From positions 1-64,000 of the IMG/VR virus record IMGVR_UViG_3300043418_000120: 64,000 nucleotides of DNA; one strand, written 5' to 3'. The position numbers were made by a program, and so were the translations under genes. Below are positions 29,161 to 61,897 of this stretch, piece after piece. Positions within the stretch are counted from its first letter, which is position 1. The number at the start of each line of letters is the position of its first letter. Under the pieces are notes generated by a model. It made no database searches, was not told the DNA's origin, and saw only the letters and a program-made list of their open reading frames with translations. Origin of the DNA: a virus.

Positions 29161-29598
29161 ATGAATCTTGAACAATTGATGGAAAGTTGGAAGAATGACT
29201 GTGTGATTGACGACAATCATCTCGGCGAAGCCTCAACAGATTCTCCCAACCTTCATTCGAAATATATCGGCTACTTGGTCAACTTTAAGCTGAAGCTAGC
29301 AAAGACCAAGGGTGAGTACAACATGCTTAGAAAGAACAAATTCCGCTACTATCGCGGCGAGCTTGGTCGTCAAGAGTTAGAAGACCTTGGATGGATTCAG
29401 TGGCAAGGCGTCAAGCCTTTGAAGAATGAGATGGACGAATTCCTCTCTGGTGACACTGACCTTGTTCAAATGGAACAAAAAGTAGAATATCTAAATACAA
29501 TTGTGATGTTCCTTGAATCGGTCATGGGACAAATCCGCTCACGAGATTTCCAGATTAAGAATGGAATTGAGTGGAAGAAATTTCTAGTTGGAATGTAA
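29161..29598 (+). CDS. uvsY: recombination mediator UvsY
   Basis: W..DC.ID, P.LHSKY, YY.G, R.FQIKN.IEW.KF..G. Confidence 0.93.
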   Translation: MNLEQLMESWKNDCVIDDNHLGEASTDSPNLHSKYIGYLVNFKLKLAKTKGEYNMLRKNKFRYYRGELGRQELEDLGWIQWQGVKPLKNEMDEFLSGDTDLVQMEQKVEYLNTIVMFLESVMGQIRSRDFQIKNGIEWKKFLVGM

Positions 29599-31085
29599 TG
29601 AAAATATACGTAGAACAAGTTGATGATGTAAATATCCGTGTGTTCTCTGAATGGGGAATTGAACAGGAGTTGAGTGCGTTCTTCACATTCGAAGTGCCAG
29701 GAGCTAAGTTTACTCCAAAGTATAAGGCTCGACTGTGGGACGGTAAGATTCGCTTGTATAATCTACAGCGTAAGACCCTACTTGCTGGTCTCTATAACTA
29801 CGTCAAGGAATTTGCTAACCGCAATGGTTACCAGTTCATTGATGCACCAAACGCATCATACAAGAAACTCCCAGTAAACGACTACACATACGAAGAGGTC
29901 GAGAACTTCGCTGAAGACCTCCAACTCTCAGCACGTGGCGAGCCAATTGATATTCGTGACTACCAGATTGAAGCGATTCAGAAGGGTATGAATGAACATC
30001 GTTGTTTGCTTCTATCACCTACCGCATCTGGTAAATCCCTAATCCTTTACACTCTCATGCGTCACTACGTTGGCGAAGGGAAGAAGTGTATTCTGATTGT
30101 TCCAACCACATCGTTGGTTGAACAGATGTATGCTGACTTTGAAGAATACTCAAGCGTAAACCTATGGCGCGTCTCTAAGAACTGCCAAAAGTTGTACAGC
30201 GGTTTCACTAAAGACATTACATCACCTGTGTTGATTACAACATGGCAGTCTATCTACAAGCAACCAAAGGCTTGGTTCGATCAGTTTGATGTTTGTTTCG
30301 GCGACGAGGCTCACCAATTCAAAGCAGCATCATTGAACACTGTCATGGAAAAGATGACATCAATTCCTTACCGCATTGGTACAACAGGAACATTAGATGG
30401 TAAGCAAGTTCACCGTCTTGTTCTTGAGGGCATGTTTGGTCCAGTGCACCGTGTGACAACTACTAAGGCATTGATGGACACAAACCGAGTTGCCCAACTA
30501 AATATTACATGTCTACTGCTGAAATATGACGAGGAAACCCGTAAAGCGCGCAAGAATAATTTATACCAAGACGAGATGGACTTTCTAGTCAAGAACTCAA
30601 AGCGTAATCGTTTCATCGTAAATCTTGCGAAATCATTAAAAGGCAACACCCTTGTTCTGTTTCAGTATGTAGATAAACACGGTAAGGTTCTTTACGACAT
30701 GTGTAAAGATTTTCCTGATCGTGAAGTTCACATTGTTCACGGCGATATCAAAGTAGATGAGCGTGAATCAATCCGTCACAAAGCAGCAAAGCATGACAAC
30801 ATGCTGGTGTTCGCTTCTTATGGTACATTCTCAACAGGTGTTAACATGCCTTCGATTGAGAACGTAATCTTCGCTAGTCCTAGCAAATCTAAGATCCGCA
30901 ACTTACAGTCTATCGGTCGTGGCTTGCGCCTGAACGAAGGTAAGACACACTGTAACTTGTATGACATTGCTGATGACTTGACTCATAAGGCGTGGAAGAA
31001 CCACACATTGGGCCACTTCATGGAGCGTGTTAAGTTGTATTCAGAAGAACAATTTAAAAGCAAGATTGTAGAGGTGGATCTATGA
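29598..31085 (+). CDS. uvsW: SF2 DNA/RNA helicase UvsW
   Basis: WDGKIRL, SPTASGKS, GDEAH, GTTGTL, QSIGRGLR, YDIADD. Confidence 0.96.
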   Translation: MKIYVEQVDDVNIRVFSEWGIEQELSAFFTFEVPGAKFTPKYKARLWDGKIRLYNLQRKTLLAGLYNYVKEFANRNGYQFIDAPNASYKKLPVNDYTYEEVENFAEDLQLSARGEPIDIRDYQIEAIQKGMNEHRCLLLSPTASGKSLILYTLMRHYVGEGKKCILIVPTTSLVEQMYADFEEYSSVNLWRVSKNCQKLYSGFTKDITSPVLITTWQSIYKQPKAWFDQFDVCFGDEAHQFKAASLNTVMEKMTSIPYRIGTTGTLDGKQVHRLVLEGMFGPVHRVTTTKALMDTNRVAQLNITCLLLKYDEETRKARKNNLYQDEMDFLVKNSKRNRFIVNLAKSLKGNTLVLFQYVDKHGKVLYDMCKDFPDREVHIVHGDIKVDERESIRHKAAKHDNMLVFASYGTFSTGVNMPSIENVIFASPSKSKIRNLQSIGRGLRLNEGKTHCNLYDIADDLTHKAWKNHTLGHFMERVKLYSEEQFKSKIVEVDL

Positions 31086-32179: not shown

Positions 32180-32342
32180 AGTAACTTACCGTTCAAGTGG
32201 CTCTCCCGATGTGGAGTTTCGCTGGTTCACTACCACTGAAGAAGCAGCTGACTTCGCAGGTAAATTGGGGGATCGTTTCATTGAGATGAAAGAGTACAGC
32301 CAACCAGAGAATTATCCACCAGCAGAATTGGATTTTAGTTAA
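32163..32342 (+). CDS. small hypothetical protein (59 aa, not in ORF track)
   Basis: MKTMYKVTYRSSGSPDVEFRWF...LDFS; fills the g55-g47 gap, TAATG coupling to g47. Confidence 0.6.
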   Translation: MKTMYKVTYRSSGSPDVEFRWFTTTEEAADFAGKLGDRFIEMKEYSQPENYPPAELDFS

Positions 32343-33409
32343 TGAGAGTAGCAATTATTACAGACCAGCACTTCGGTGCTCGCAATGACAGCGTTGCGTT
32401 TTTGAATTTCTATGAAAAGTTCTATGACAATGTGTTCTTCCCAACACTTGAACAGACGGGCATTGACACTGTTCTTATTCTTGGTGACACATTTGATCGA
32501 CGTAAGTATGTGAACTTCTATGCTCTTCAGCGAGCAAAGGAAATGTTCTTTGATAAACTAGCAGCTGCGAATATCCGCGTGTATATGTTGGCTGGTAATC
32601 ATGACACCTACTACAAGAACACCAATGAGGTGAACTCGCCAGACTTATTGCTTCGTGAGTATTCTAACATCTCCGTGATCGATCGTCCGCAAACAATTCA
32701 TCTAGACTACGGCAACACCAATGCTGATGTGTTGATGCTACCTTGGATTTGTGCTGATAACTATGCTGAGTCGATGGCTGAATTGACAAACACAACAGCT
32801 ACTCTGTGTATGGGTCACTTAGAGTTGGCTGGCTTCGCAATGTACCGTGGGATGGATTCGCATGAAGGAATGGATAAAAACATTTTCGATAAGTTTGATC
32901 GGGTGTTCTCTGGTCATTATCATCATAAGTCTGATGATGGACATATCTTCTATCTCGGAAACCCTTACGAGCTTACGTGGCAGGACTATAACGATCCCCG
33001 AGGATTCCACTTGTTCGATCCAAACACAAGAGAGCTCGAGTTCGTACGAAATCCTTATACAATGTTCACGCGAATCGAATACGACGATAAAGAACAAGAG
33101 CCAATCAACCTTGACTCACTGGATCTGAAAGAACAGTATGTGAAATTGGTTGTGGTCAATAAGACTGACTACTATAAATTTGACCAATTTACTCAGAAGC
33201 TGTATAATAAGGGCTGTCATGAAGTCAAGATCGTTGAGAACTTCTCTGAGTATGAAGAAGGCGCGATTGATGGTGACATCAACTTAGAAGATACCATGTC
33301 GGTGTTGGATAACTACATTGATTCGATTCAGACAGAGTCTGATAAAGAACGAATCAAACAGTATATGAAAACTTTGTATACTGAAGCTGTGAATGTGGAG
33401 GTCGTTTGA
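32342..33409 (+). CDS. gp47: Mre11/SbcD-like recombination endonuclease
   Basis: TDQHFG, LGDTFD.RK, GNHD, GHLE, SGHYH. Confidence 0.96.
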   Translation: MRVAIITDQHFGARNDSVAFLNFYEKFYDNVFFPTLEQTGIDTVLILGDTFDRRKYVNFYALQRAKEMFFDKLAAANIRVYMLAGNHDTYYKNTNEVNSPDLLLREYSNISVIDRPQTIHLDYGNTNADVLMLPWICADNYAESMAELTNTTATLCMGHLELAGFAMYRGMDSHEGMDKNIFDKFDRVFSGHYHHKSDDGHIFYLGNPYELTWQDYNDPRGFHLFDPNTRELEFVRNPYTMFTRIEYDDKEQEPINLDSLDLKEQYVKLVVVNKTDYYKFDQFTQKLYNKGCHEVKIVENFSEYEEGAIDGDINLEDTMSVLDNYIDSIQTESDKERIKQYMKTLYTEAVNVEVV

Positions 33410-35118
33410 TTATTTTTGAATCAGTTGAGTGGGCAAACTTTTTGTCTACTGGCAACAAAGCAAACAAAGTAATTCTGAACCGCTCATCATCAACATTGAT
33501 TGTTGGTAAGAACGGCGAAGGTAAGAGCACGATCCTTGACGCCTTGTGCTTTGGTTTGTTTGGTAAACCTTTCCGCGATATTAACAAGCCACAGTTGATC
33601 AACAGTATCAATGGCAAGAACTGTTCCGTTACTGTTGAGTTCAGTGTGGCTGGTAAGTCATACAAAATCATCAGAGGTATGAAGCCAACAGTGTTTCAGA
33701 TTATCTGTAACGGCGAGGTTATCAACCAAGACGCAGCAGCTAAAGATTACCAAAAGGTTCTTGAGCAACAAATTTTAAAGCTGAACTACAAGACATTCAC
33801 GCAAGTGGTTATCTTGGGTTCAGCCTCTTTTGTTCCATTCATGCAGTTGCCTGGAGGTCAGCGTCGTGATGTTATTGAAGACATTCTTGACATCCGTGTG
33901 TTTAGTACCATGAACACATTATTGAAGCAACGCATGCAGGAGACTAAAGATGAGATTGCGTCAACTGAAGCAGCACTCGCGCTGGCGCGTGAGAGGGTTG
34001 TTGCTCAACAGAAAACCATTACTCTCTTGCAAGAAAGTCGAGCGAGTAATGTTTCAGCTGTATCGAAAAAGATTGAAGATAATGTGGTCGCTATCGAAAC
34101 CAGCTCTCAACACATTGATGTTCTCAATGAAGACATTGAGAAACTTAAACAGAGCATCGAAGACAGGAAGACTGTACTTGACGACATCGAGAAAGCCAAG
34201 AGAATTGCTCAGAGCAAGACGAGTAAGATATCTGACCTCTCCTCAACCGTGGAGTTTTTCAAAGGCAACGATGCGTGCCCACAGTGTGAGCAGGGTATCC
34301 CGCATGATCACAAGTCCAGAATTATTGACCAAATCACAGTAGAGATGGGTAAGAATGAGCAGATGGTTGAGGAGTTGTCCGCAGCAATGATCAAACTCAA
34401 TGCTCGTCTTGAACACATCAACGCTGTTCAGGAACAGATTACTGACAAGAACATTGAAGTGTCAACAGCCAACCAAACCGTTACTGTTCTGAACAAACTC
34501 AATAAGCAGCTGGCAGCTGAACTTGAAGAGATGAAGAAAGACACTGGTAATGTGGACGATGAGAAGGCTAAGTTGAAAGAGATGGCAGCTGCTGCTATCG
34601 CACACTTGGATCGTAAGACACAGTTGATTGACAAGCGTCAGTATGAAGAAGTTGCTGGATTGTTGCTGAAAGACTCAGGAATTAAAACAACAATTATCCG
34701 TGAGTATCTGCCTGTGATGAACAAGCTGATCAACAAATATCTGACAGCCATGGACTTCTATGTTCACTTTGAGCTTGACGAAACCTTTACCGAAAGTATC
34801 AAGGCTCGTCACCGCGATGAGTTTACTTACGCAAGTTTCTCTGAGGGTGAGAAGATGCGTATTGACTTGGCTATCCTGTTCACATGGCGTCAAGTAGCTA
34901 AGATGAAGAACAGCGTCAACACCAACCTGTTGATTCTTGATGAGATCTTTGACTCAAGCCTTGACGTAGCAGGAACAGATTATTTCTTGTCTCTGATGAA
35001 CGCTATGGGCGAACATACTAATGTGTTTGTTATCAGCCACAAGGGCGATCAGCTGTTTGACAAGTTCCACTCAGTAATTAAGTTCGAAAAGCATAACGAA
35101 TTTTCTGTGATTGCTTGA
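33406..35118 (+). CDS. gp46: Rad50/SbcC-like recombination ATPase
   Basis: GKNGEGKST, CPQC zinc hook, FSEGEK signature, ILDEIFD, ISHK. Confidence 0.96.
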   Translation: MIIFESVEWANFLSTGNKANKVILNRSSSTLIVGKNGEGKSTILDALCFGLFGKPFRDINKPQLINSINGKNCSVTVEFSVAGKSYKIIRGMKPTVFQIICNGEVINQDAAAKDYQKVLEQQILKLNYKTFTQVVILGSASFVPFMQLPGGQRRDVIEDILDIRVFSTMNTLLKQRMQETKDEIASTEAALALARERVVAQQKTITLLQESRASNVSAVSKKIEDNVVAIETSSQHIDVLNEDIEKLKQSIEDRKTVLDDIEKAKRIAQSKTSKISDLSSTVEFFKGNDACPQCEQGIPHDHKSRIIDQITVEMGKNEQMVEELSAAMIKLNARLEHINAVQEQITDKNIEVSTANQTVTVLNKLNKQLAAELEEMKKDTGNVDDEKAKLKEMAAAAIAHLDRKTQLIDKRQYEEVAGLLLKDSGIKTTIIREYLPVMNKLINKYLTAMDFYVHFELDETFTESIKARHRDEFTYASFSEGEKMRIDLAILFTWRQVAKMKNSVNTNLLILDEIFDSSLDVAGTDYFLSLMNAMGEHTNVFVISHKGDQLFDKFHSVIKFEKHNEFSVIA

Positions 35119-35313: not shown

Positions 35314-35319
35314 GTCAAT

Positions 35320-35374
35320 ACCCCTACGGACAGTAGGGGTTTTGGTTTACTTTAAATAGATGTTCAGGTATAAT
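35320..35374 (+). repeat. palindrome-promoter cassette header (divergent copy)
   Basis: CCCCTAC-ggaca-GTAGGGG then TTTACT-17-TATAAT. Confidence 0.75.
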
Positions 35375-35398
35375 CAAGCTATGGAAAGGGGAAATGAT

Positions 35399-35845
35399 AT
35401 GAGAAAAGGCGAAATGTTAGACAAGGCTCTGTTACTTGCTACCAACTCTCACCATGGGCAGTTCGACAAGGGTGGCGCTCCCTACATTCTCCACCCAATC
35501 AAGGTTATGCACTACATCAAGTCTGACGATGAAGAACTGATGTGTATGGCTCTCCTACATGATGTTGTAGAGGACTGTGACGTTACCTTTGTGGACTTGG
35601 AAGCCATCGGCATGAGCAAGCGTGTTATTGATGCTGTTCGCTGCTTGACTAAGCAACGTGGCCAAACCCTTGCTGAGTACAAGGAGGTCATCTTCTCGAG
35701 CCGTGACGCGATGCGTGTCAAGATGGCTGACTTACGACACAACAGCGATATCCGTCGTCTGAAGGGCGTGACTGAGAAGGATCTGGTTCGTATGGAAAAG
35801 TACCATAGGTTCTATCTTGAGATCCAAGCAAAACTGGCTGAGTGA
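35399..35845 (+). CDS. HD-domain small alarmone hydrolase-like protein (Mesh1/SpoT HD family)
   Basis: H.GQ.DK.G.PYI.HP, ALLHDVVED, VKMAD..HN. Confidence 0.85.
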   Translation: MRKGEMLDKALLLATNSHHGQFDKGGAPYILHPIKVMHYIKSDDEELMCMALLHDVVEDCDVTFVDLEAIGMSKRVIDAVRCLTKQRGQTLAEYKEVIFSSRDAMRVKMADLRHNSDIRRLKGVTEKDLVRMEKYHRFYLEIQAKLAE

Positions 35846-40209: not shown

Positions 40210-40685
40210 TGTTGAAAGAGATGCAAAAGTTTGCTAAGCACATGCATGGCACCTACGTGGCGTTTCAAGTTGATGCTCTAAGCGCAGCCAAACTTGATCA
40301 CTTCTGCCAGACACGATTGGGTTTAGGTCATGACAGAGTTCACGCTAGCAAGTACCACACAACAGTCATCTACTCACGTAGCCCTGTTCCTGATGCTGAA
40401 GACTTGTCCGAAAAGACAAGCGCATGGGGGAAGGCTATCGGCTATGACATTTTCCAAACAAACGGCGAGCGCTGTCTTGTTATGCTTGTTGAATGCGAAG
40501 ATGCTACTAACCTAAATGCTGCTCTCGGTCGTCGTGGTGCAACTTCAGACTTTCCAACATACAATGCGCACATCACATTGAGCTATGCATTCAACGGCGA
40601 CGAGCGCGAGCTGCCTTTGCCTGACTTCAGAATCACATACGATCGTGTTGTCGTTGAACCACTTGACCCTTTACACATAGATTAA
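40206..40685 (+). CDS. acb1: anti-CBASS 2H phosphoesterase (T4 gp57B/Acb1 homolog)
   Basis: GTYVA, HTTVIYSR, GATSDFPTYNAHITLSY and EPL match T4 57B motifs GLYVA, HSTICYSR, GATHDFDDYTPHITLSY and EPL (recalled). Confidence 0.85.
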   Translation: MMLKEMQKFAKHMHGTYVAFQVDALSAAKLDHFCQTRLGLGHDRVHASKYHTTVIYSRSPVPDAEDLSEKTSAWGKAIGYDIFQTNGERCLVMLVECEDATNLNAALGRRGATSDFPTYNAHITLSYAFNGDERELPLPDFRITYDRVVVEPLDPLHID

Positions 40686-41742: not shown

Positions 41743-41858
41743 AACCAAAGACTTACATTTCGATAACCCTACCATGTGTAGGGTTTTTCACATTGGTGCT
41801 TGCCTTTAATTCCGAACAGAGGTATAATCAATCTATTGAAAGACGAAAAGGATACGAT

Positions 41859-42275
41859 ATGATGAAGGCTGGCGTTTACTACATTGGTGACCTGTGCTAC
41901 GTGATGCATGATTGCTGGGATGAGTTCTGTGACCTTACTATCAAAGGCAATGAGTGCCTGAGTGGTGAGTTTACTATGAAGGATGGTCGCCGTTTCGCTA
42001 CCTACTCTACCAAGTATGGTGATGGTTTGTACCCAACAAACGTAGGCGCTAACCTTTCCGTTGATGCTGGTCTGATTGGTTGTATCCTTGTCAGCGACAT
42101 CCGTGACCCTGAAGCTACCGAAGCAGCAATGAAGTCTCTCGGCACTATCGTCGAGTTCGGTACTGACTTTGTTACTGGTGGTTCGCGCGAGACAGGTACA
42201 ATACAGTTTGGTCGTGTTGTTGTTGAGACAGGCGATTTTTATGATGATGAGGAAGATGAGTATGACTGCGAATAA
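41859..42275 (+). CDS. conserved phage hypothetical protein
   Basis: GVYYIGDLCYV...T.YGDG.Y...VDAGLIGC; start set by the header RBS. Confidence 0.75.
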   Translation: MMKAGVYYIGDLCYVMHDCWDEFCDLTIKGNECLSGEFTMKDGRRFATYSTKYGDGLYPTNVGANLSVDAGLIGCILVSDIRDPEATEAAMKSLGTIVEFGTDFVTGGSRETGTIQFGRVVVETGDFYDDEEDEYDCE

Positions 42276-42582
42276 TGCGTTGATGGTTGAACAACTTGGT
42301 CTGTTGGCTGAGAAGGGCGTGATGGTTCAAATGCGCAGCCGATTTGAGTATGAGGTGTTTGGTTTCTACAAGAGCAACAGCGTTGTTGTGAACCTGCCTA
42401 TGCAAACAGTAACAGCACGCTACGGTGAAGTTGATGAGTTTGCTGCTGAAGGTTTGTTTGATGCTTTGGTTGAACTCAACTACAGCTGGTGGTCGCGCAG
42501 CCATGCACGCTACGATGGTTGGTCCCGCCCATCCCCTGAGTGGGAAAAGTTGTTCGAAGCTGCTGGTCTCGAGGTCGATTGA
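42262..42582 (+). CDS. hypothetical protein
   Basis: GFYKS...ARY...W; RBS GAGG. Confidence 0.65.
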   Translation: MTANNALMVEQLGLLAEKGVMVQMRSRFEYEVFGFYKSNSVVVNLPMQTVTARYGEVDEFAAEGLFDALVELNYSWWSRSHARYDGWSRPSPEWEKLFEAAGLEVD

Positions 42583-42630
42583 CTTTAATTAGCAGCTCAG
42601 GTATAATTGTTGATCATTGAAAGGATTGTT

Positions 42631-42942
42631 ATGTCTAATTTTATTACTTTTTCCACAAATACCACAGCTGTTCCTGTAGAGGCTGGTGGAATTTTGAATG
42701 GGTATAAGCTCAACTCTATTCTACACAGTGGTCGCAAAATTTCTCTAGCGCAGAACGCCTATTACTACATCCCATACACAAACACAATTGTGTCTTTCCG
42801 CGGATCAAAGGCCAAAGCGATGGTTCGTAGCGATGACGGCAAGTACAGTTTCATCGAGAAATTTACTGACCGCAAAGGGCACTGGACTTTTAAGGTTGAT
42901 TCAGCCATGGTTCACGAGGCTGCGCTGACCATGTTCCGATAA
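42631..42942 (+). CDS. hypothetical protein
   Basis: Own promoter TTGACT-17-TATAAT at 42579; stop TAA is part of the next header. Confidence 0.7.
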   Translation: MSNFITFSTNTTAVPVEAGGILNGYKLNSILHSGRKISLAQNAYYYIPYTNTIVSFRGSKAKAMVRSDDGKYSFIEKFTDRKGHWTFKVDSAMVHEAALTMFR

Positions 42943-43022
42943 CCCTACAGCTCGTAGGGGCTTTACTTTAATTCGGATTCGAGGTATAATCAATCTATTG
43001 TGAGAAAAGAAAGGTTTTGATT

Positions 43023-43229
43023 ATGGGTTTCGAGTCTGTTGTGTTGGCTAAGGTTCGTGAAGTGTTGGTTGCTGTTCCTAGCTACCAAGCAAATTTTGTG
43101 AACGGTACGCTGTTCGTTGAGTGCTCTGTCCGTGACGCTATCCGTCTCGAGACAGCTCTGCTTGAGAAATTGCGCTGCGGCATCATCCTGAGTCGCGTTG
43201 GTGATGAGTCTGCGTTTGACTTTGTTTAA
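43023..43229 (+). CDS. hypothetical protein
   Basis: First gene after header 42940. Confidence 0.65.
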   Translation: MGFESVVLAKVREVLVAVPSYQANFVNGTLFVECSVRDAIRLETALLEKLRCGIILSRVGDESAFDFV

Positions 43230-43238
43230 GGGGCTGGT

Positions 43239-43385
43239 ATGAGAGTTTCGTTTCGTAATGTCCGTATCAATGAACTGTTCAGCTGCAATGGTAACCTATA
43301 CTACAAAAAGTCAAGCCGTACAGCTGTGCTGATGTCAGCCAACCGTACATTCTATATGTCACAACATGACAACTGTCTGATCTGA
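43239..43385 (+). CDS. 48-aa hypothetical protein (not in track)
   Basis: MRVSFRNVRINELFSCNGNLYYKKSSRTA...; AAGGGG RBS. Confidence 0.6.
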   Translation: MRVSFRNVRINELFSCNGNLYYKKSSRTAVLMSANRTFYMSQHDNCLI

Positions 43386-43392
43386 GGTGCTT

Positions 43393-43656
43393 ATGACAAT
43401 CAAAATGTATAAGAGTGAGTATGTGAGTAAAGAAGAAACCGCTCGCCAATGTGTTGTCGCTGAACAAGTGGCCATCGAGTTTCAGGAAGAGTTTGCTGCT
43501 ATGTGTGAGAAGTATAAGGTAGAATTCTCTGTTCGTGAAAAGACTAGCGGATATAGCACCTACGTGGAAGGCATTGATGTCGACTTTGATGGCATTTATG
43601 AAGATGGCACAACCGTTCGTCCATACTTTACCATTCAGTTTGGTAGCACAATCTAA
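43393..43656 (+). CDS. hypothetical protein
   Basis: GAGG RBS; operon packing. Confidence 0.6.
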   Translation: MTIKMYKSEYVSKEETARQCVVAEQVAIEFQEEFAAMCEKYKVEFSVREKTSGYSTYVEGIDVDFDGIYEDGTTVRPYFTIQFGSTI

Positions 43657-43665
43657 GGAATCAAA

Positions 43666-43848
43666 ATGAACATCCAAACTGTAGCAGAAAATCTGCGTAA
43701 CACAATCGCGGGCAAGAAGGCGATGTTGGCTGGCATCAAAGACAACGGCAAAGAAGGATATTATATACTGTCGCATATGCTGAGTATGAACATTGAAGAG
43801 TTGGAGAAAATTCTGGCTGATGTTGACCAATGTTTGGTGGAGCAGTGA
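43666..43848 (+). CDS. hypothetical helical protein
   Basis: AAGGA RBS. Confidence 0.6.
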   Translation: MNIQTVAENLRNTIAGKKAMLAGIKDNGKEGYYILSHMLSMNIEELEKILADVDQCLVEQ

Positions 43849-44186
43849 TGACCCTGACTGACTTGGTCTCTCGTCAAGGCAACAAGTGCTACTACTGCAG
43901 TTGCGAAATGAATCAGACTAAGAAGTCACCGAATCAAGCTACGGTTGAGCACTTGGTTGACAAGTGGTCTAGCCCAAAGCATCGTAAGATTGAATGCACT
44001 TCTAACCTAGTCGCTGCTTGCTTTCAGTGTAACAATAGTCGTGGTGCGGCTCGTAATAGAATTGCTCGCGACTACTACAAAACGCAAGCTGCCAAGAAGA
44101 GTATGAAACTGGCGGTGGCGTCTATCTCGAGTCGTCAATTGTATTCGTTGTTTGGTCCAGTACCACAAACCCTATTCGTCATGTAA
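43848..44186 (+). CDS. HNH endonuclease-like protein
   Basis: QGNKCYYC...ATVEH...NLVAACFQCNNSRG. Confidence 0.8.
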   Translation: MTLTDLVSRQGNKCYYCSCEMNQTKKSPNQATVEHLVDKWSSPKHRKIECTSNLVAACFQCNNSRGAARNRIARDYYKTQAAKKSMKLAVASISSRQLYSLFGPVPQTLFVM

Positions 44187-44195
44187 GGAATTGAA

Positions 44196-45221
44196 ATGCG
44201 TAAACTTGCTAAGATTGTTAAGATCGACAACCTGACACCCATCGATGGTGCTGATAAAATTGAAGTTGCCACTGTTGGTGGTTGGAAAGTTGTAGCCCAG
44301 AAGGGTCTATACAACGTTGGCGACTTGGCTGTGTATTTTGAGATTGACTCATGGATTCCAACCGAGTTGGCACCATTCTTGTCTAAGGGCAAAGAGCCTC
44401 GTGAGTTTGAAGGTGTCAAGGGCGAACGCCTAAAGACTATCAAGCTGCGTGGGCAGTTGTCACAAGGTTTGTTGATGCCACTGTCTGAAGTAATTTCTAT
44501 TGCTGGTTGCTGGTCACCAATCCAAGAGGGCGATGATGTTACAGAGTACTTGAACATCAAGAAGTGGGAAAAGCCAATGAATGCTCAGTTGGCAGGTGTG
44601 TGTCGTGGTAATTTTCCATCACTGATTCCAAAGACTGATCAAGAGCGTGTTCAAAACTTGAAGAAGGAAATTGGTGCTGCTCAGAACGATGTGTTTGAAG
44701 TCACTGAAAAGTGCGAAGGTTCTTCAATGACTGTGTACCAAATGGTTGTTGAAGGTGAGATGACATTCGGTGTGTGTTCACGTAACATGGACTTGAAGGA
44801 AACTGAAGGTAACTCTTTCTGGGCTACTGCGCGCAAGGATGACATTGAAGCAAAGATGCGTGCTGTTGATGAGTTCTGGTCATTCGCAATTCAAGGTGAG
44901 TTGATTGGTCCAGGCATTCAAGGTAACATCTATGGATTGAAAGAACCAAAGTTTGTTGTGTTTGATGTGTACGACATTCAAGCAGGTGAATACTTGCCAC
45001 CAGATGCTCGTCGTGAGTTGATTGCTGGTATGGGGTTGAACCATGTGCCAGTGTTGAACGAACGCTATGTGTTGACTCAAACCGTTGATGAGATCATCGC
45101 TTCTGCTGAAGGTCAATCGACCATTGCCAAGGTAGAGCGCGAAGGTATTGTGTTCAAGCAAGCCATGGGTGGATTCTCATTCAAAGCGATCAGCAACGCC
45201 TATCTTTTGGGCGAAAAGTAA
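44196..45221 (+). CDS. RNA ligase (DRB0094/Rnl5-type, N-terminal OB domain)
   Basis: RKLA...I.GAD.IE...VGGW, PKTDQER.QN, motif I TEKCEGSS, QGELIG, FDVY, REGIVFK, FKAISN. Confidence 0.9.
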   Translation: MRKLAKIVKIDNLTPIDGADKIEVATVGGWKVVAQKGLYNVGDLAVYFEIDSWIPTELAPFLSKGKEPREFEGVKGERLKTIKLRGQLSQGLLMPLSEVISIAGCWSPIQEGDDVTEYLNIKKWEKPMNAQLAGVCRGNFPSLIPKTDQERVQNLKKEIGAAQNDVFEVTEKCEGSSMTVYQMVVEGEMTFGVCSRNMDLKETEGNSFWATARKDDIEAKMRAVDEFWSFAIQGELIGPGIQGNIYGLKEPKFVVFDVYDIQAGEYLPPDARRELIAGMGLNHVPVLNERYVLTQTVDEIIASAEGQSTIAKVEREGIVFKQAMGGFSFKAISNAYLLGEK

Positions 45222-45294
45222 CCCTACCATCAGTAGGGTTACTGGTTTACTTTAATTCAGAACTCAGGTATAATCAATCTATTGAAACAAAGGA

Positions 45295-45666
45295 ATGATC
45301 ATGAACGACAACTACAGTATCCCCTCCTATACATTTGCTCGCTCTGGCGCTATCACCCGCGAGTTTCTGGCCAACTTACCTTTCCGTCTCTTCAAGGACA
45401 GCGACTATCTGGCATTCGCAGGCGTCGAGAGCCCAGTACCTTTGATCGCTGAGGTCGAAGGCGACTTTGAAAGTTTCATCGTGATTGTTGACGGTGATAC
45501 TGCTGAGATGTACGTTGCCAATGAAGATGGTGCATTTGATATTGTGGATGCTGTTGGGTTCATCTCAGAGTTACAGTATGGCCCAACCAAGGATGAGTTG
45601 ATTCGTGAAGCGCGCATCAAAATCAATGAGTTGCAAGCAACCCTGCGTAAACTGGAAGCCCAATGA
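45295..45666 (+). CDS. hypothetical protein
   Basis: First gene after header 45219. Confidence 0.7.
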   Translation: MIMNDNYSIPSYTFARSGAITREFLANLPFRLFKDSDYLAFAGVESPVPLIAEVEGDFESFIVIVDGDTAEMYVANEDGAFDIVDAVGFISELQYGPTKDELIREARIKINELQATLRKLEAQ

Positions 45667-46004
45667 TCTACGCATCCTTCAAGAAGCGCAAGCCACGTAA
45701 ACCCAACGCGGAACAGCGTGCTCTAGCAAAGTCATGGTCTGACATGGTAGCGCAGTACGAGCCCAAGAAACCTATTGCCCCATCCAAGGACACAGGATTC
45801 GTGTACAAGCTCAATGCGCCTGTTGGTCGCGAGACGCCTAAGATCCCATCACGCGCAACGGCTGGTGGTAATGGTTCATGGCGTCCCAACCCTGTCTACA
45901 CAGGCGACAAGATCAAGGGCATCGGCACAATGCACAAGAGCAACGCAGTGCCAGTGTTCAGCGACGAGGAAGCCCAAGACATTGCTAAGATGCGCCGAGG
46001 ATAA
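45663..46004 (+). CDS. conserved T4-like basic hypothetical protein
   Basis: YTG..I.GIGTMHKSNAVPVF...A.DIAKMRR motif. Confidence 0.75.
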   Translation: MIYASFKKRKPRKPNAEQRALAKSWSDMVAQYEPKKPIAPSKDTGFVYKLNAPVGRETPKIPSRATAGGNGSWRPNPVYTGDKIKGIGTMHKSNAVPVFSDEEAQDIAKMRRG

Positions 46005-46082
46005 CCCTACTGTTCGTAGGGGCTTTACTTTAATTCGGATTCGCGGTATAATCAATCCATTGAAACAGAAAAGGAAAACAAA

Positions 46083-46277
46083 ATGACTAAGCTCCCTCGC
46101 AACGTGGTGTCTGTAACTGTGGTTGATGGCGTAACCTTTACCGTGTACAAGTCTCGCAAGACTCCAAAGTCTACATGGCGCTCTGGCAAAGTCAGCCGTA
46201 CTGGTTCAACAGGTACATCTGGTTTTGCTATTGGTTTCCCAAGCCGCTCTACCATCGGTGGTGGTGTTCAGGAATGA
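46083..46277 (+). CDS. small basic hypothetical protein
   Basis: After header 46002. Confidence 0.6.
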   Translation: MTKLPRNVVSVTVVDGVTFTVYKSRKTPKSTWRSGKVSRTGSTGTSGFAIGFPSRSTIGGGVQE

Positions 46278-46453
46278 CTGTGGGTACAGACAACCAAACC
46301 TATGAGCAAGGCGTTGCCGATGCTCAGCTTGACCTGATGGGTGGTTGGGTTGATGAACACACAACAGCACAGGAAGTCATAGACCAACTGACAATTGCTG
46401 TTGGTGCCAGCCAAGAGTACATTCAGGGCTACTTGACTGTGGTTGGCGTATAA
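46274..46453 (+). CDS. hypothetical protein (59 aa)
   Basis: ATGA coupling; stop inside header 46451. Confidence 0.6.
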   Translation: MTVGTDNQTYEQGVADAQLDLMGGWVDEHTTAQEVIDQLTIAVGASQEYIQGYLTVVGV

Positions 46454-46521
46454 CCCTACTACTCGTAGGGGCTTTACTTTAATTCGGTTCTAGAGTATAA
46501 TCAATCTATTGAAACAAAGGA

Positions 46522-46722
46522 ATGATTATGACAGTCATCAAGGCAACTTCTTACGGTGAGATTGGTATTGACCCTGAAGCAAGTCCAGGCAACGGACAGT
46601 TCTACGCCATGACTTATGATGGCGAACTCAATGCCTGTGGTTACGAAACCGCAGAGGAAGCGTGGGCTGAACTTGAGTATGTCGCCTGTGGTATTGAAGA
46701 CGCTGTGTTGGAGGAAGTATGA
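46522..46722 (+). CDS. small acidic hypothetical protein
   Basis: After header 46451. Confidence 0.65.
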   Translation: MIMTVIKATSYGEIGIDPEASPGNGQFYAMTYDGELNACGYETAEEAWAELEYVACGIEDAVLEEV

Positions 46723-47003
46723 GTTTGCCAAAGTTAAAAGTCAAGCTGATGTTGCGCGATCCCAGCTGGACGCCTATCTTTGAGGATGGCAACCCATGGG
46801 CTGTGAACAAAGACAGCTACCTGATTGAGCAAGAACGCGAAGTTGAGGTTGTTCAGCTTAACCTTAACACTGGTGGCATGCGCATCCGCTGGAATGAGCC
46901 TGACGCCACCAAGAAGAAAGGCTACGTGGTTGAGAGCTGTGACATATCCATCGACCACTTCTACAAGCACTACCACATCATCCAGATGCCAGAACGCACA
47001 TAA
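46719..47003 (+). CDS. hypothetical protein
   Basis: GGAGG RBS; stop inside header 47001. Confidence 0.65.
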   Translation: MSLPKLKVKLMLRDPSWTPIFEDGNPWAVNKDSYLIEQEREVEVVQLNLNTGGMRIRWNEPDATKKKGYVVESCDISIDHFYKHYHIIQMPERT

Positions 47004-47078
47004 CCCTACTGTTCGTAGGGGCTTTACTTTAATTCGGTTCTAGAGTATAATCAATCTATTGAAAGACGAAAGGTTGAT

Positions 47079-47363
47079 ATGTCCCGCTCTTATAACCCAC
47101 TTGATTACATCCCCCACTTGATCGTCGGCTGCATCATCGCTATGCCTCTGTTCCTGTTTGTGTGTGCTATTGATCAAGGCTTTGGCTCCGATAAGGTTTT
47201 GGACACGTACTCAGGTCAGAAGTCAGTTTGTACTCGCTACCAGTTCAATAGCAGCTTGAAGGTTACCCAGTGTGTTGAGCGTGTGATGGTTGCTGCTACC
47301 TGTAAGAAGATTGAGCACACAGGTCCCGTGTTTGGTGTGTTCACCAATGAGCGTTGCGAATAA
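47079..47363 (+). CDS. membrane protein with Cys-containing exported domain
   Basis: N-terminal TM; single-gene cassette. Confidence 0.65.
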   Translation: MSRSYNPLDYIPHLIVGCIIAMPLFLFVCAIDQGFGSDKVLDTYSGQKSVCTRYQFNSSLKVTQCVERVMVAATCKKIEHTGPVFGVFTNERCE

Positions 47364-47437
47364 CCCTACAACCTGTAGGGGCTTTACTTTAATTCGGAAC
47401 TCAGGTATAATCAATCTATTGAAACAAAGGGCTGATT

Positions 47438-47584
47438 ATGAAAAACTACGTGTTTGTGACTGATTCTGAACTCGCTGAATTCTTGAAAAAATTGGGTGAC
47501 CTGTCGCTTGAGGCTGATACCTTTGAAGTGGCGTTGGCTGCTTTGCGTCTTCAAACTTTGTTGAAAACCGCTTACGGTGTGTGA
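47438..47584 (+). CDS. 48-aa microprotein (paralog of 35167..35313)
   Basis: MKNYVFVTDSELAEFLKKLGDLSLEADTFEVALAALRLQTLLKTAYGV; single-gene cassette. Confidence 0.75.
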   Translation: MKNYVFVTDSELAEFLKKLGDLSLEADTFEVALAALRLQTLLKTAYGV

Positions 47585-47672
47585 GTGAATAAACCCTACT
47601 ACCCGTAGGGTTATCGCTTTACAATAATTCGGATTGGTAGTATAATCAATCTATTGAAACAAAAGGCTGACT

Positions 47673-48062
47673 ATGTACTCGTTCTCTCCACTCGCTTCTA
47701 TCCCTGCTTGCCATGATGGTTTCGGCATCATCGTTGCTCTGTGTATCTTCATCACAGTTATCGTTCTGATGAACGAAGCCGAGCTGTTCTTTCAGTGGTT
47801 CTTTGTGGCTACTGTGACATGTGTACTTGCTTACTTTGTGTCCTACAGCTGGACTGACCAGACGCCCAAAACCTTTGTGAATGAGAAGGTGACAGCTACC
47901 TTTGTCAGCTTTGAGGCTGAGGGCTACAAAGAGAAGTCAGGCAAGAGCTACGTAGACAAGCACTTCACCTATGTTGTGTACAATGTCAACGGCTCCAACG
48001 TCCTGTTGTCTGCTACTCCTGGCCAAACCTATCCACAATCTGTCATCCTGTACAAGAACTAA
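47673..48062 (+). CDS. two-TM membrane protein
   Basis: Two hydrophobic helices; single-gene cassette. Confidence 0.7.
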   Translation: MYSFSPLASIPACHDGFGIIVALCIFITVIVLMNEAELFFQWFFVATVTCVLAYFVSYSWTDQTPKTFVNEKVTATFVSFEAEGYKEKSGKSYVDKHFTYVVYNVNGSNVLLSATPGQTYPQSVILYKN

Positions 48063-48143
48063 TAACCCTACAGGCTGTAGGGGCTTTACTTTAATTCGGA
48101 ACTCAGGTATAATCAATCCATTGAAACAGAAAAGGAAATCGAA

Positions 48144-48332
48144 ATGAAACCTACAACATGGGAAGTTTGTTTTGACTATGGCCCACATATGAGTGATACA
48201 GTAAAGGTCAAGGCCAGTTCAGAAGACGAAGCCATTGCCAAAGTAGAGAAGGCGGCAGAGAAAAAAGGTCGCAGTATTGATATCAACTGGGCGAAATCAG
48301 CAGAGCAAGGTGTGGCGGAGGAATACGCATGA
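48144..48332 (+). CDS. hypothetical protein
   Basis: VKASSEDEAIAK; after header 48063. Confidence 0.65.
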   Translation: MKPTTWEVCFDYGPHMSDTVKVKASSEDEAIAKVEKAAEKKGRSIDINWAKSAEQGVAEEYA

Positions 48333-48565
48333 TTGAGTACAAAACCGCTGAGGAAGCAATCGCAGCCAACATCAAGGCGATGGGTGATGACGGTTTCATT
48401 GAGTTTAATGGAATGAACTGCAACGACTACCTTGATGACGATGAGATGTTCTGCGATGGCTGGGATGGTGTTGATCGCCGCTGTGACTGTGGCAACCGCA
48501 GAGTCAGCTGGACAACTGAGCAGGACAGCAAGGGCAATTGGTCAGCTTACGCGGAGGCATACTGA
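48329..48565 (+). CDS. Cys-rich hypothetical protein
   Basis: GMNC...CDGWDG..RRC.CGNRRV.W. Confidence 0.7.
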   Translation: MIEYKTAEEAIAANIKAMGDDGFIEFNGMNCNDYLDDDEMFCDGWDGVDRRCDCGNRRVSWTTEQDSKGNWSAYAEAY

Positions 48566-48804
48566 TGGTGGGTCTAAAAGAATGGTTTGAAGCCAAAGCC
48601 TATAAGCCCAAGTATGAGTTTGGTGCTCGTGTGATTGGCAAGTACCGTAAGATGCCCTTTGTTGGTTGTGTGGGCACAGATGGCATCCGTTCAGAGGAGG
48701 AAGGACCAATCCTAACTGTTACGCTGGACCTGCCTCTGATGGTAGATGGCATACCTCGAACTGTGTTAATTGTCAAGCACAAAGATGTAAAACCCTACAA
48801 GTAG
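48565..48804 (+). CDS. SH3-like hypothetical protein
   Basis: YKPKYEFGARV.G...PFVG.VG...LDLP; TGATG coupling. Confidence 0.6.
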   Translation: MVGLKEWFEAKAYKPKYEFGARVIGKYRKMPFVGCVGTDGIRSEEEGPILTVTLDLPLMVDGIPRTVLIVKHKDVKPYK

Positions 48805-48864
48805 TAGGGGAATGGTTTACAATAATTCGGATTGGAGGTATAATCAATCTATTGAAACGAAGGA

Positions 48865-49032
48865 ATGACAATGGAATACATTATACTTACTGACAGCCGT
48901 TCTGACGCCCTTGCTGGTGATGTGACTTGGCACCTGTCCCAAGGCTGGGAATTGGTTGGTGGTGTAAGCCTTTCCGTTGCTCCAGGTGGCTGGACTTCAT
49001 ACGCTCAGGCTATGAAGAAGGACTCAAAATGA
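48865..49032 (+). CDS. DUF1737-like small protein (55 aa, not in track)
   Basis: V..HL..GWELVGGVS.....YAQAM. Confidence 0.6.
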   Translation: MTMEYIILTDSRSDALAGDVTWHLSQGWELVGGVSLSVAPGGWTSYAQAMKKDSK

Positions 49033-49310
49033 CTGTTACAATCGCTCTGAACACGCTCCCTCCAGGCATGGAATTTGACTGGGAAGGCAACCCTCGCTAC
49101 AAGAAAAGTTGGTATCAGGTGTTTGAGTGTACCGATGCTACTGACCACTGGAGCTATGACGCCTCCAAGCTGTTGTTTGAGTCAGACTGCCTAGCCAAGT
49201 CGCACAGCTTTGCCTATGACACATGGCTCAAGGACGAGGCTAAAATCTTCACAATCATCCAAGCCTGTGATGAGTCATGCCGTGGTGGCTATGGCTTTGA
49301 TGAGTATTAA
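49029..49310 (+). CDS. hypothetical protein
   Basis: ATGA coupling; stop inside header 49308. Confidence 0.6.
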   Translation: MTVTIALNTLPPGMEFDWEGNPRYKKSWYQVFECTDATDHWSYDASKLLFESDCLAKSHSFAYDTWLKDEAKIFTIIQACDESCRGGYGFDEY

Positions 49311-49384
49311 CCCTACTACTCGTAGGGGCTTTACTTTAATTCGGTTCTAGAGTATAATCAATCTATTGAAACAAAGGAACCGAA

Positions 49385-49477
49385 ATGACTGATTATGAAA
49401 AGCCCCTTCTTGAAGACATGACTGATACCGTTGTGCTCTATGTGTTGTGTGCTATCTTGATCATGGTGGTGATGTAA
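49385..49477 (+). CDS. 30-aa membrane peptide (not in track)
   Basis: MTDYEKPLLEDMTDTVVLYVLCAILIMVVM; header RBS, TAATG coupling. Confidence 0.5.
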   Translation: MTDYEKPLLEDMTDTVVLYVLCAILIMVVM

Positions 49478-49779
49478 TGTTCAGTTTCTTCAAATCCAAA
49501 CCTACCAAGCCAGCGATCCCAGAGATTATGCGTCGCTACCGCTACACATGCTCATGCGGCGAGCACACTGACCTTGAGTGGTGCCCTGCCTGTGGTATCC
49601 GTAACACATACAAGTGGAACGGCAGCAAGGGCTATCCAACCCGCGCAAAGGCGTCGCCAGCGATCACTACCTCGTCCTCGGACAGCTACGTGGACATGAG
49701 CTCGTCCTTCAGCAGCTACAGCAGCTCGGACAGCTCATGCTCTAGTGACGGTGGCAGCTGCTCGGGTGGTGGCGAATAA
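49477..49779 (+). CDS. zinc-ribbon protein with Ser/Gly-rich tail
   Basis: CSCG...CPACG; C-terminus SSSDSSCSSDGGSCSGGGE. Confidence 0.65.
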   Translation: MFSFFKSKPTKPAIPEIMRRYRYTCSCGEHTDLEWCPACGIRNTYKWNGSKGYPTRAKASPAITTSSSDSYVDMSSSFSSYSSSDSSCSSDGGSCSGGGE

Positions 49780-49858
49780 CCCTACAGCTCGTAGGGGCTT
49801 TACTTTAATTCGGATTGGTAGTATAATCAATCTATTGTGAGAAAAGAAAGGTTTTGAT

Positions 49859-50008
49859 ATGATTCGCGTTGTTACTGGTTTCCTGATTGTGTTTGGTGCT
49901 GTGGGTGGTCTTGATAATGCTACTGACTCTAACCTGTTGCCCTTGGTAGCTATCGCGGTTGCTGGCTTGGCCATCATGGCAGCTGGTCTGAGCAAGGTGA
50001 CCAAATGA
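49859..50008 (+). CDS. 49-aa two-TM membrane protein (not in track)
   Basis: MIRVVTGFLIVFGAVGGLD...LVAIAVAGLAIMAAG. Confidence 0.6.
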   Translation: MIRVVTGFLIVFGAVGGLDNATDSNLLPLVAIAVAGLAIMAAGLSKVTK

Positions 50009-50148
50009 GCTACATCCTGATCACTCCAACGGGCAAGACCTATACCTTCTACCTGAAGGCTGTCGCACAAACGTATCTGCAAGCCTATGGTGGTACACTG
50101 ATTACCCCTACCACTGGTAAGGTCATTTCCGAAACTGCTTGCGCATAA
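50005..50148 (+). CDS. 47-aa hypothetical protein (not in track)
   Basis: MSYILITPTGKTYTFYLKAVAQTY..AYGGTL; reads through header 50103. Confidence 0.55.
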   Translation: MSYILITPTGKTYTFYLKAVAQTYLQAYGGTLITPTTGKVISETACA

Positions 50149-50174
50149 TTCGGATCTAGAGTATAATCAATCCT

Positions 50175-50378
50175 ATGATGAACGAAATTAGAATTGAACG
50201 TGCCTTCGGGATGGATAAGCTGGGTCGCGATGTACCTGTGGGCTTTGACATCTATGTGGATGGCAACTGGGGCAACCGTTTCCGCACCCTGCGTGAGTGC
50301 AAGGTAGCGCTCGCTGCTGATGGCATCCAGTATAACCCTACCATGCGTAAGGTTATTTCCGAAAGTGCTTTACGTTAA
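50175..50378 (+). CDS. hypothetical protein
   Basis: After header 50103; reads through header 50333. Confidence 0.55.
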   Translation: MMNEIRIERAFGMDKLGRDVPVGFDIYVDGNWGNRFRTLRECKVALAADGIQYNPTMRKVISESALR

Positions 50379-50427
50379 TTCGGTTTCGACGTATAATTAC
50401 TCTATTGATTTGAAAGAAAGACTGAAA

Positions 50428-51351
50428 ATGACTAATACCGTGAAGACCTCTGTTTCGTTTGATAAAGTTTCTGGCAAGTACACTGTTCAGATTGGTGATC
50501 AAAAGCCTTTCAAGACTGCCAAGAAGAGCCATATTGAATGGAAATTCAAGCAGGTCACAGGTATGGACATGGACTATGACTCTATCGTGGCTGGTGAGGT
50601 TGAGGCTAAGCAAGCCAAGGACAATAAGTTCGGTATCAACGCTCGCTTCGCCTTTGTTGAGCAGCTGGTCTCAATGGTTGCTGACGGTGTTCAGCCTAGT
50701 GCCGTGATCACTGGTGAGGGTGGTCTGGGTAAGACTCACACTGTTACTAAGACGCTGGCTGCTAAGGGCTACACCGATATCTCCGATTTGAGTGAGTTCG
50801 CAGTTGGCTCAACTCTGGCTCGTAAGTCATTCAAGACAATCAAGGGCTTCTCAACCGCAAAGGGCTTGTACCGCACTCTGTTTGAGAACAATAAGTCAGT
50901 TATCGTGTTTGACGACTGCGACGCTGTGCTCAAGGATCCAGTTGCTCTCAATGTGTTGAAGTCAGCCCTGGACAGCTACGGCAAGCGCATTATCAGCTGG
51001 AACGCTGAGTCGGGTGATGACCTGCCTCGTAGCTTCAACTTTGAGGGTCGTGTGATTTTCATCTCCAACATGGACCAATCTAAAATCGACCAAGCAATTC
51101 GTAGCCGCTCGATGATGATTGACCTGAGCATGACTACCGAGCAGAAGATTGACCGTATGGAAACAATTGCTGCTAGCCCTGACTTCATGCCTGAGTATTC
51201 AGCTGAGATCAAGCAAGATGCATTGAACCTGATCCGTGAACTCAAGGACGACGCCAAGGAAATCAGCCTGCGTACGCTTATCGCAATCAGCAAGGTGCGC
51301 GCAGCTAACAAAGAATGGAAAGCTCTGGCAGAATACATGCTGGTAGCCTAA
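50428..51351 (+). CDS. AAA+ ATPase
   Basis: Walker A GEGGLGKT, Walker B VFDDCD, IFISN sensor, AIRSR Arg finger. Confidence 0.88.
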   Translation: MTNTVKTSVSFDKVSGKYTVQIGDQKPFKTAKKSHIEWKFKQVTGMDMDYDSIVAGEVEAKQAKDNKFGINARFAFVEQLVSMVADGVQPSAVITGEGGLGKTHTVTKTLAAKGYTDISDLSEFAVGSTLARKSFKTIKGFSTAKGLYRTLFENNKSVIVFDDCDAVLKDPVALNVLKSALDSYGKRIISWNAESGDDLPRSFNFEGRVIFISNMDQSKIDQAIRSRSMMIDLSMTTEQKIDRMETIAASPDFMPEYSAEIKQDALNLIRELKDDAKEISLRTLIAISKVRAANKEWKALAEYMLVA

Positions 51352-51389: not shown

Positions 51390-51590
51390 ATGAAGAATTT
51401 TGACATGACTACAGTAAGCACTAAGCTCGCTCTTGACATTATGACTGGAGTAAAGGTTGATATGGAGAAGGTACAAGAGCAGTACGCATTAGGCAACTAC
51501 ACTACAATCAAGTTGATCGATCGAGTGATTAGCAAGGTAGAGAGTCTAACAGAGGCAGAGGTTGCTCCTGAGGGCACTACCATTCAGTGA
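51390..51590 (+). CDS. hypothetical protein
   Basis: 66-aa ORF from the ATG at 51390. Confidence 0.5.
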   Translation: MKNFDMTTVSTKLALDIMTGVKVDMEKVQEQYALGNYTTIKLIDRVISKVESLTEAEVAPEGTTIQ

Positions 51591-51957: not shown

Positions 51958-52041
51958 GAATGATGTAATGGTAACAGTAGTCAGTAGATGACTTACTCCA
52001 TGAGAATCAGATGAACAGTTGACTGACTCCATGGAGAAACG

Positions 52042-55339: not shown

Positions 55340-55518
55340 TGGCTAGACCTTACATTCCAGAACCTTCTCTTGAGACTCAGGCTCGCTCGATTCTGAAGCG
55401 GATCGCCGAGTTCTTGGGATGTAAGGTTACAATCGAATTTCGGTATCGCGATGGAACCCACCACTGCGCGACCTTTGACTACAGGGAAGACCTTACTGGT
55501 GGTAAGGTTATTCCTTGA
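55339..55518 (+). CDS. 59-aa hypothetical protein (not in track)
   Basis: MARPYIPEPSLETQARSILKRIAEFLG...; reads through the palindrome at 55491. Confidence 0.5.
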   Translation: MARPYIPEPSLETQARSILKRIAEFLGCKVTIEFRYRDGTHHCATFDYREDLTGGKVIP

Positions 55519-55543
55519 CATTTATTGTTATTAGAGGTATAAT
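55491..55543 (+). repeat. palindrome-promoter header variant
   Basis: CCTTAC-tggtg-GTAAGG then TTGACA-17-TATAAT. Confidence 0.65.
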
Positions 55544-55566
55544 TAAGTTTTTAAGATGGAGTTGAT

Positions 55567-55995
55567 ATGAAAGAGTTTACATTTGGGACGAAGTCCTGGC
55601 ACCTGTATCTGGCAAATTTTGGTCAGGATAGTTTCTCCCGAATCACGAAGGGCGACGAGACTGACCTGTGTTCCTATACGCGCCGAGTGCTTGCTGGTTT
55701 GTTCTGGTTCAGCGTCGCTGCGATTTTGATCACAACAGCAGCTACCGTTACCCTGTTGGGTTTCTATGACATCGCGATGTGGTTGTTTACTGATATTCCA
55801 CGCATGGATGTGTTTGGTGTTATCGTCTCAATAATTTTAGTCTCAGTCACAATTCTCTTGACAATCTATGGTATCAAATATTTTATCGATACCCGAGATA
55901 TCAAAATCATTCCAAGCATTCCTGAGGATTCATTCGTTGGTCTGACATATAAGCGTGTTAAGAACAAGACTTGTTTCAAAATTAAATTCCAGTAA
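55567..55995 (+). CDS. two-TM membrane protein
   Basis: SWH.YL...DLCSY.R, two TMs, YKRVKNK.C.KIKF. Confidence 0.7.
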   Translation: MKEFTFGTKSWHLYLANFGQDSFSRITKGDETDLCSYTRRVLAGLFWFSVAAILITTAATVTLLGFYDIAMWLFTDIPRMDVFGVIVSIILVSVTILLTIYGIKYFIDTRDIKIIPSIPEDSFVGLTYKRVKNKTCFKIKFQ

Positions 55996-61779: not shown

Positions 61780-61781
61780 GA

Positions 61782-61897
61782 TAACCCTACAGATTGTAAG
61801 GGTTTGCAAGCCCCTACAGGCGGTAATCCTGTAGGGGCTTTACATTTAATCAAGATTCAGGTATAATTACTCTATTGATTTGATAAGAAGACTGATA
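61782..61897 (+). repeat. double-palindrome cassette header
   Basis: CCCTAC-agatt-GTAAGG, then perfect 13-bp inverted repeat 61808-61840, TTTACA-17-TATAAT, and a leader shared with header 50333. Confidence 0.8.

Follow-up and report, generated by a model that had tools for sequence, protein, structure and literature searches.

An array of palindrome-bearing promoter headers in an uncultured T4-like phage resembles PeSL elements and is probably shuffled by homologous recombination

The first 64,000 nucleotides (hereafter the window) of IMG/VR virus record IMGVR_UViG_3300043418_000120, a 173,880-bp genome rated complete, contain an array of small genes separated by a repeated element, here called the header, which combines an upstream stop codon, a palindrome (dyad), a sigma-70-type promoter, a Shine-Dalgarno (SD) sequence and a start codon. 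The genome encodes gp23 (capsid), gp55, UvsY, a UvsW-like helicase, gp46/47 and UvsX and is assigned to the T4-like phages; its capsid protein shares no more than 67% identity with those of cultured phages, which places it in an uncultured branch, and none of the cultured relatives holds the header array. The same gene order was assembled in a Joint Genome Institute (JGI) contig (L201, 99.9% identity), so the array is not a chimeric assembly. Relatives were collected by protein look-ups anchored on the conserved AAA-like protein (phrog_1250) that closes the array; two pattern scans of public collections with the exact promoter core gave zero matches.

Fourteen headers (H1–H14) lie within 41.76–50.43 kb, with three outlying copies elsewhere in the window (Table 1) and a degenerate one at 51757, so that the copy numbers given in an initial annotation of this sequence (about 14 here, 17 with outliers) could be confirmed and every copy located. 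Each unit has its own −35/−10 boxes and SD, and all header promoters read the + strand. The stop codon of the upstream open reading frame (ORF) is the header TAA in eight copies, exactly those for which the annotation had proposed it; this TAA belongs to the outer arm of the palindrome and is not a separate element. At four sites (48793, 50106, 50336 and 55491) the upstream ORF enters or crosses the palindrome. The parts of the annotated header layout are all present, but palindrome and −35 box are not always joined by a short “GC” link: the link measures 2 nt in eight of the 14 copies, 6–7 nt in three and 16 nt in three. H5 and H11 are identical over 72 bp, as had been noticed, and the median header pair shares 21 bp of identity. 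Genome-wide, 20 dyad sites were found (at most one mismatch, 5-nt centre) versus none or one in 30 base-shuffled genomes, and 14 of 23 genome dyad sites fall within 8.7 kb. The header has no Rfam match, and a literature search on the motif found nothing relevant, most subscription journals being outside its coverage.

Table 1. Headers, cargo and recombination genes of the array and its surroundings. Positions refer to the window unless marked otherwise.
Feature	Position	Strand	CCCTAC start	Remarks
H1	41763..41861	+	41767	Dyad, 16-nt link, −35 TTGCCT, −10 TATAAT, leader, SD, ATG
Palindrome-less header promoter copy	42579..42633	+		Upstream TGA stop inside its −35
H2	42939..43025	+	42943	2-nt link; TAA stops 103-aa ORF
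H3	45218..45303	+	45222	7-nt link
H4	46001..46085	+	46005	
H5	46450..46530	+	46454	72 bp identical to H11
H6	47000..47081	+	47004	
H7	47360..47440	+	47364	Left half recurs in chimeric header of contig L202
H8	47590..47675	+	47594	7-nt link
H9	48062..48146	+	48066	
H10	48789..48873	+	48793	6-nt link; upstream ORF ends within dyad
H11	49307..49387	+	49311	
H12	49776..49861	+	49780	
H13	50102..50180	+	50106	16-nt link, one C-A mispair, within upstream ORF
H14	50332..50430	+	50336	16-nt link, one C-A mispair, within upstream ORF
Outlying header	35318..35401	+	35322	Precedes metal-dependent phosphohydrolase gene
Outlying header	55487..55569	+	55491	Variant half-sites, within upstream ORF
Outlying header	61781..61867	+	61785	Two tandem palindromes
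Cargo region	41859..50378	+		28 ORFs, all +, mostly 30–138 aa, without known family
HNH endonuclease	43848..44186	+		Before RNA ligase; present or absent among relatives
RNA ligase, 341 aa	44196..45221	+		Stop provided by H3
AAA-like protein, conserved (phrog_1250)	50428..51351	+		Closes array
UvsY and UvsW-like helicase	29161..31085	+		General recombination
gp47 and gp46	32342..35118	+		SbcD-like and SbcC-like recombination nuclease
UvsX	genome 79635–80360			Beyond window; recombination protein

The cargo departs in two respects from the initial annotation, which had described one to five small unrelated genes per unit and inferred that they act early against the host. The unit behind H2 holds six genes, that of the 341-aa RNA ligase among them, and an anti-host role is not supported, as the scanned cargo yielded only the RNA ligase, the HNH nuclease, the AAA-like protein and two families of unknown function.

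The composite of elements corresponds part by part to the PeSL (promoter early stem-loop) element as defined by Arbiol et al. (2010; PMC2839356), in which an upstream stop, a stem-loop, a sigma-70 promoter, an SD and a start codon follow one another in hyperplastic regions of T4-type phages; the comparison with PeSLs already drawn in the annotation is therefore borne out. That study demonstrated mini-circles, likened the system to integrons and reported finding no recombinase; whether the stem-loop is bound by a protein was left unanswered. PeSLs were later extended to the T4/PST and KVP40/nt-1 pairs (Comeau et al., 2014; PMC4122927). With the PeSLs of RB49/phi1, T4/PST and KVP40/nt-1 the present array shares the T4-type phage background, the hyperplastic setting of small ORFans (clustered sites, mostly family-less cargo), a high density of units (RB49 has eight in about 5 kb), insertions, deletions (indels) and replacements at the units, chimeric units and the lack of a dedicated recombinase; the T4/PST promoter consensus TTTACW-17-TAYWAT also matches the header promoter. 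The palindrome sequence, however, differs. The published stem-loops have no constant sequence or position and are interpreted as terminators; the one described here has a fixed sequence, a centre of constant 5-bp length and discrete distances to the −35 box. The present comparison also quantifies gene conversion among units, and does so in an uncultured phage branch.

Comparison with strain-level contigs at 92–99% identity, which are collinear with the array flanks over an alignment of about 9 kb, allowed seven gene-content differences to be mapped. The slot before H2, behind the palindrome-less promoter, is empty in three contigs (L220–L222), holds an HNH gene in a fourth (L224) and a 103-aa ORF here. 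L220 also has the stretch up to H3 replaced, and lacks an 87-aa ORF that was lost via short microhomology away from the headers. In L215 the right half of H9 and the first gene after it are replaced, and L212 lacks the first ORFs behind H10 and H11. In six of the seven changes, one or both ends lie in a header; several replacements end at the header TAA, and eight of 14 breakpoints lie inside headers (per-base enrichment, p=3e-4).

Exchange between headers is recorded more directly in their alleles. Among orthologous headers, 8 of 21 changed centre or spacer segments match the allele of a paralogous header exactly, where 0.22 would be expected by point mutation; these matches amount to about six independent events. 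One strain (L214) carries H2 alleles in both the centre and the spacer of its H4. In a sister species, a 579-bp two-ORF unit stands between two headers (L121) and is absent from three contigs (L122–L124), where a single chimeric header remains: it follows the left header to just after the −35 box and the right header thereafter, with the switch about 25 bp 3' of the dyad. Gene order between headers is not fixed either, for a 172.7-kb contig (L202) holds shared genes in a different order, and its joining headers take their left half from the header of the upstream gene and their leader from that of the downstream gene; in the header that separates p94 from d68, the left half is that of H7 and the right half is H2-like. 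By comparison of relatives, exchange thus takes place inside headers, as had been proposed for gene gain, loss and reordering; the enzymes that carry it out are inferred. Two paralogous 48-aa ORFs (35167–35313 and 47438–47584, 65% identical), each behind a header-type promoter, suggest a past duplication or move of a unit.

Several observations weigh against headers as privileged sites of exchange. When breakpoints are compared with gene junctions, which we consider the fairer null, the enrichment disappears (8/13 vs 15/29, p=0.34), so headers are frequent, not exclusive, exchange sites, and selection for intact genes could explain where breakpoints lie. Genes also move at header-less junctions, and the only clean header-to-header event comes from the sister species and not from strains of this phage. 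The “plug-and-play” description of the annotation is overstated, many events having one end at an ordinary junction. The lack of enrichment over gene junctions, together with the microhomology deletion in L220, would fit another explanation, in which headers are merely conserved promoters and illegitimate recombination occurs anywhere, only gene-boundary events surviving. The cargo gene at 46528–46722 points the same way, being found at 77–81% nucleotide identity in phages that have other headers and lack the present one (L225:3348-3545 and L235:2068-2265); cargo therefore crosses between header families. We nevertheless consider this explanation unlikely because it leaves unexplained both the paralogue-allele swaps and the chimeric headers at the 579-bp indel and the reordered genes.

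The headers are instead likely, from their sequences and those of relatives, to be PeSL-type early-promoter units of a T4-like hyperplastic region that are exchanged by general homologous recombination. Each would drive transcription of one to six small genes by the host sigma-70 polymerase. Because copies share 21–72 bp of identity, non-allelic headers could be recombined by the phage's own UvsX, UvsY, UvsW and gp46/47, the presumed enzymes. Crossovers in the common promoter core would delete, insert and reorder units and leave chimeric headers with an upstream left half and a downstream right half, while short exchange tracts would copy alleles between headers, keeping them alike and sustaining further exchange. 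No site-specific recombinase would be needed. A further possibility is that recombination is targeted to headers, beyond what homology provides, by a protein bound to the dyad or by gp46/47 or endonuclease VII cutting a cruciform, an idea raised for PeSLs by Arbiol et al. (PMC2839356). Fast turnover of the dyad centre would agree with it (6 of 30 centre positions differ in L214, against 0.6% of coding sequence), but dyad-less arrays homogenise too (up to 79 bp of identity in the related phage G008) and in most relatives the dyad is found at promoters that stand alone and are stable; we regard such targeting as improbable.

The array is not an integron, to which the initial annotation had likened it. 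Both consist of small unrelated genes in a row, with a recurring palindromic element between them in which the upstream stop is often found, but here there is no IntI tyrosine recombinase, the genes are not promoterless cassettes read from one Pc promoter, as every unit has its own promoter and SD, and neither an attC bottom-strand architecture nor an Rfam match was found. Crossovers also lack the fixed base of attC; the mapped switch points differ between events and lie downstream of the dyad. The phage genome, rated 100% complete, gave zero Pfam matches to tyrosine integrase (PF00589), serine resolvase (PF00239) or Y1 transposase (PF01797), in agreement with the annotation, which had seen no recombinase gene in the window beside those for UvsY, the UvsW-like helicase and gp46/47; a recombinase supplied by the host might still act. 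A site-specific system resembling an integron might also be imagined, with the 10-5-10 dyad as the recombinase core site: such sites are inverted repeats with a fixed short spacer, which the dyad resembles, and the replacements ending at the header TAA would suit it. Tyrosine recombinases, however, usually need matching spacers, and with 63 different centres in 91 sites the dyads are too diverse to serve as matching overlap regions. The position of the switch points in the promoter core, and not in the palindrome, likewise favours plain homologous recombination over a dedicated recombinase. In G008, 11 homogenised early promoters whose −35 box reads TGTACA are arrayed at 27.1–32.0 kb (L500); none has a palindrome, and three of them share 58–79 bp of identity, so a palindrome is not required for such repeat arrays. 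Taken with the Pfam result, this makes a site-specific system highly improbable. REP/RAYT elements (repetitive extragenic palindromes and their associated transposases) likewise share the GTAG tetranucleotide and the GTAGGG/CCCTAC hexamers, but here the arms stand in the opposite order, the element is linked to a promoter and no Y1 HUH transposase is encoded nearby or elsewhere in the genome. The notion that the centres act as address codes was rejected: the centre does not stay the same at orthologous positions, and different positions can carry one and the same centre.

The palindrome itself extends beyond this array. At least 12 records of related genomes have it, usually at 4–14 isolated promoters each, and more distant relatives lack it. 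Its profile is a symmetric 25-mer (AWRMCCCTAC-N5-GTAGGGKYWT). Of 94 sites in other genomes, 84 have a 5-nt centre; conservation is higher at positions ±12 than at ±11, which pair at chance level only. The distance to the −35 box is 2–3, 6–8 or 14–17 nt and never 4–5 or 9–13 nt (91 sites), the 6–7 and 16–17 nt spacings being one helical turn apart; both spacer and placement relative to the promoter are thus fixed, as in an operator. Half-site variants occur on either arm independently, and mispairs are found in 17 of 91 sites, with G-U (12) not clearly favoured over C-A (9); even after de-duplication the sites lack phylogenetic independence. A fixed centre, discrete spacing, mispairs and sites within ORFs are features expected of a DNA site that a dimer recognises, and with moderate confidence we read the dyad as a predicted 25-bp operator for a dimeric DNA-binding protein, perhaps with a dual role: it would co-regulate the promoter class, and some copies may also terminate transcription weakly. 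A lead is offered by the lambda CI/Cro sites and other 17-bp operators of dimeric helix-turn-helix regulators. They too are odd-length dyads with a free centre, independent half-site variants and a fixed place beside a sigma-70 promoter, but for the present dyad only a candidate protein can be named.

Under the classical PeSL interpretation, the palindrome would instead be an intrinsic terminator insulating the units, its sequence conserved only through descent and homogenisation. One RB49 PeSL stem-loop has been shown to terminate (PMC2839356), and features of the present element weigh in the same direction and against an operator: many palindromes closely follow a stop codon, short-link copies continue into a T-rich tail (6 T in 8 nt), nine array copies pass a terminator scan, and compensatory variants exist, with CCCCAC/GTGGGG at eight sites and covariation at ±5 and ±9 (p<=0.002) that fits a hairpin. 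Symmetric changes could also be produced by palindrome self-correction, a process of T4, which tells against the operator as well. A terminator would, however, hardly keep its loop at 5 nt across phages with only 50–70% median protein identity, nor does it account for the gaps in the spacing to the −35 box or the recurrent mispairs; many copies have only 2–4 T after the stem, and terminating copies inside ORFs would cut the mRNA ahead of the stop. We therefore hold a purely terminating role to be possible but doubtful. The suggestion that the dyad compensates for a weak −35 box holds in this genome (14/17 vs 1/18) but fails in a pool of the other genomes (p=0.74) and was rejected. As a separate observation, the second palindrome of the tandem pair at 61781–61840 resembles a true hairpin, its stem being long and perfect and its loop 7 nt, which sets it apart from the family norm.

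A candidate for the protein that would read the putative operator is a 131-aa ORF (genome 67529–67924), present in all seven complete dyad-bearing genomes. The gene that precedes it encodes a MoxR-like ATPase and has the dyad in its promoter; two relatives (G002, G003) have a dyad before the ORF's own gene. Its predicted structure (pLDDT, the predicted local distance difference test, 80) has a winged-helix-like topology, but Foldseek gave no match at E<=0.001 (best Z 4.2), a PDB sequence search was empty and Atlas matches were below 0.9. The ORF also occurs in dyad-less G008 and G009, a point against the operator, and this and the weak fold matches make it only a weak lead. A host-regulon test with the 25-bp motif in prokaryote genomes returned single scattered matches in unrelated taxa, with no lineage prominent among the matches listed. 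Two observations may be added: the MoxR-like AAA ATPase and the 131-aa protein form a pair (genome 66320–67924; L355:2320-3924) conserved across the clade, the latter being weakly similar to the N-terminal domain of the adjoining ATPase, and three dyad-bearing promoters are clustered at genome 126873–127607 (L358).

Three further features were recorded around the array. Just 5' of it, the ORF at 40206–40685 has a promoter without a dyad, and its homologues in L220 and L224 (96% identical) are labelled as Pfam Acb1 (anti-CBASS, directed at the cyclic-oligonucleotide-based anti-phage signalling system). On the other side, the gene-poor stretch 51590–52040, which contains the degenerate dyad and two promoters, is well conserved in L212 and is possibly a non-coding RNA; it has no Rfam match. 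About 90 bases at window positions 60–150 recur in the last 150 bases of the genome, inside a repetitive ORF; the genome is probably circularly permuted, with the record beginning inside a repeat.

PeSL shuffling has so far rested on two papers and three phage pairs, and the present array extends it to an uncultured T4-like branch. The sequence of the header is new, as are the statistics on gene conversion and the operator-like character of the dyad; the comparison also adds population evidence, in that non-allelic headers exchange alleles and the switch points lie in the promoter core. A bolder proposal, which we put forward only as an outside chance, is that the palindrome is a protein-binding site and not a terminator, that it defines a clade-wide early accessory regulon, and that its protein also steers recombination; if true, this would settle what Arbiol et al. 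(2010) had left unanswered. Should the dyad be an operator, this early promoter class would be controlled through an upstream site, unlike the MotA/AsiA system of T4, and any gene landing behind a header would join the regulon at once.

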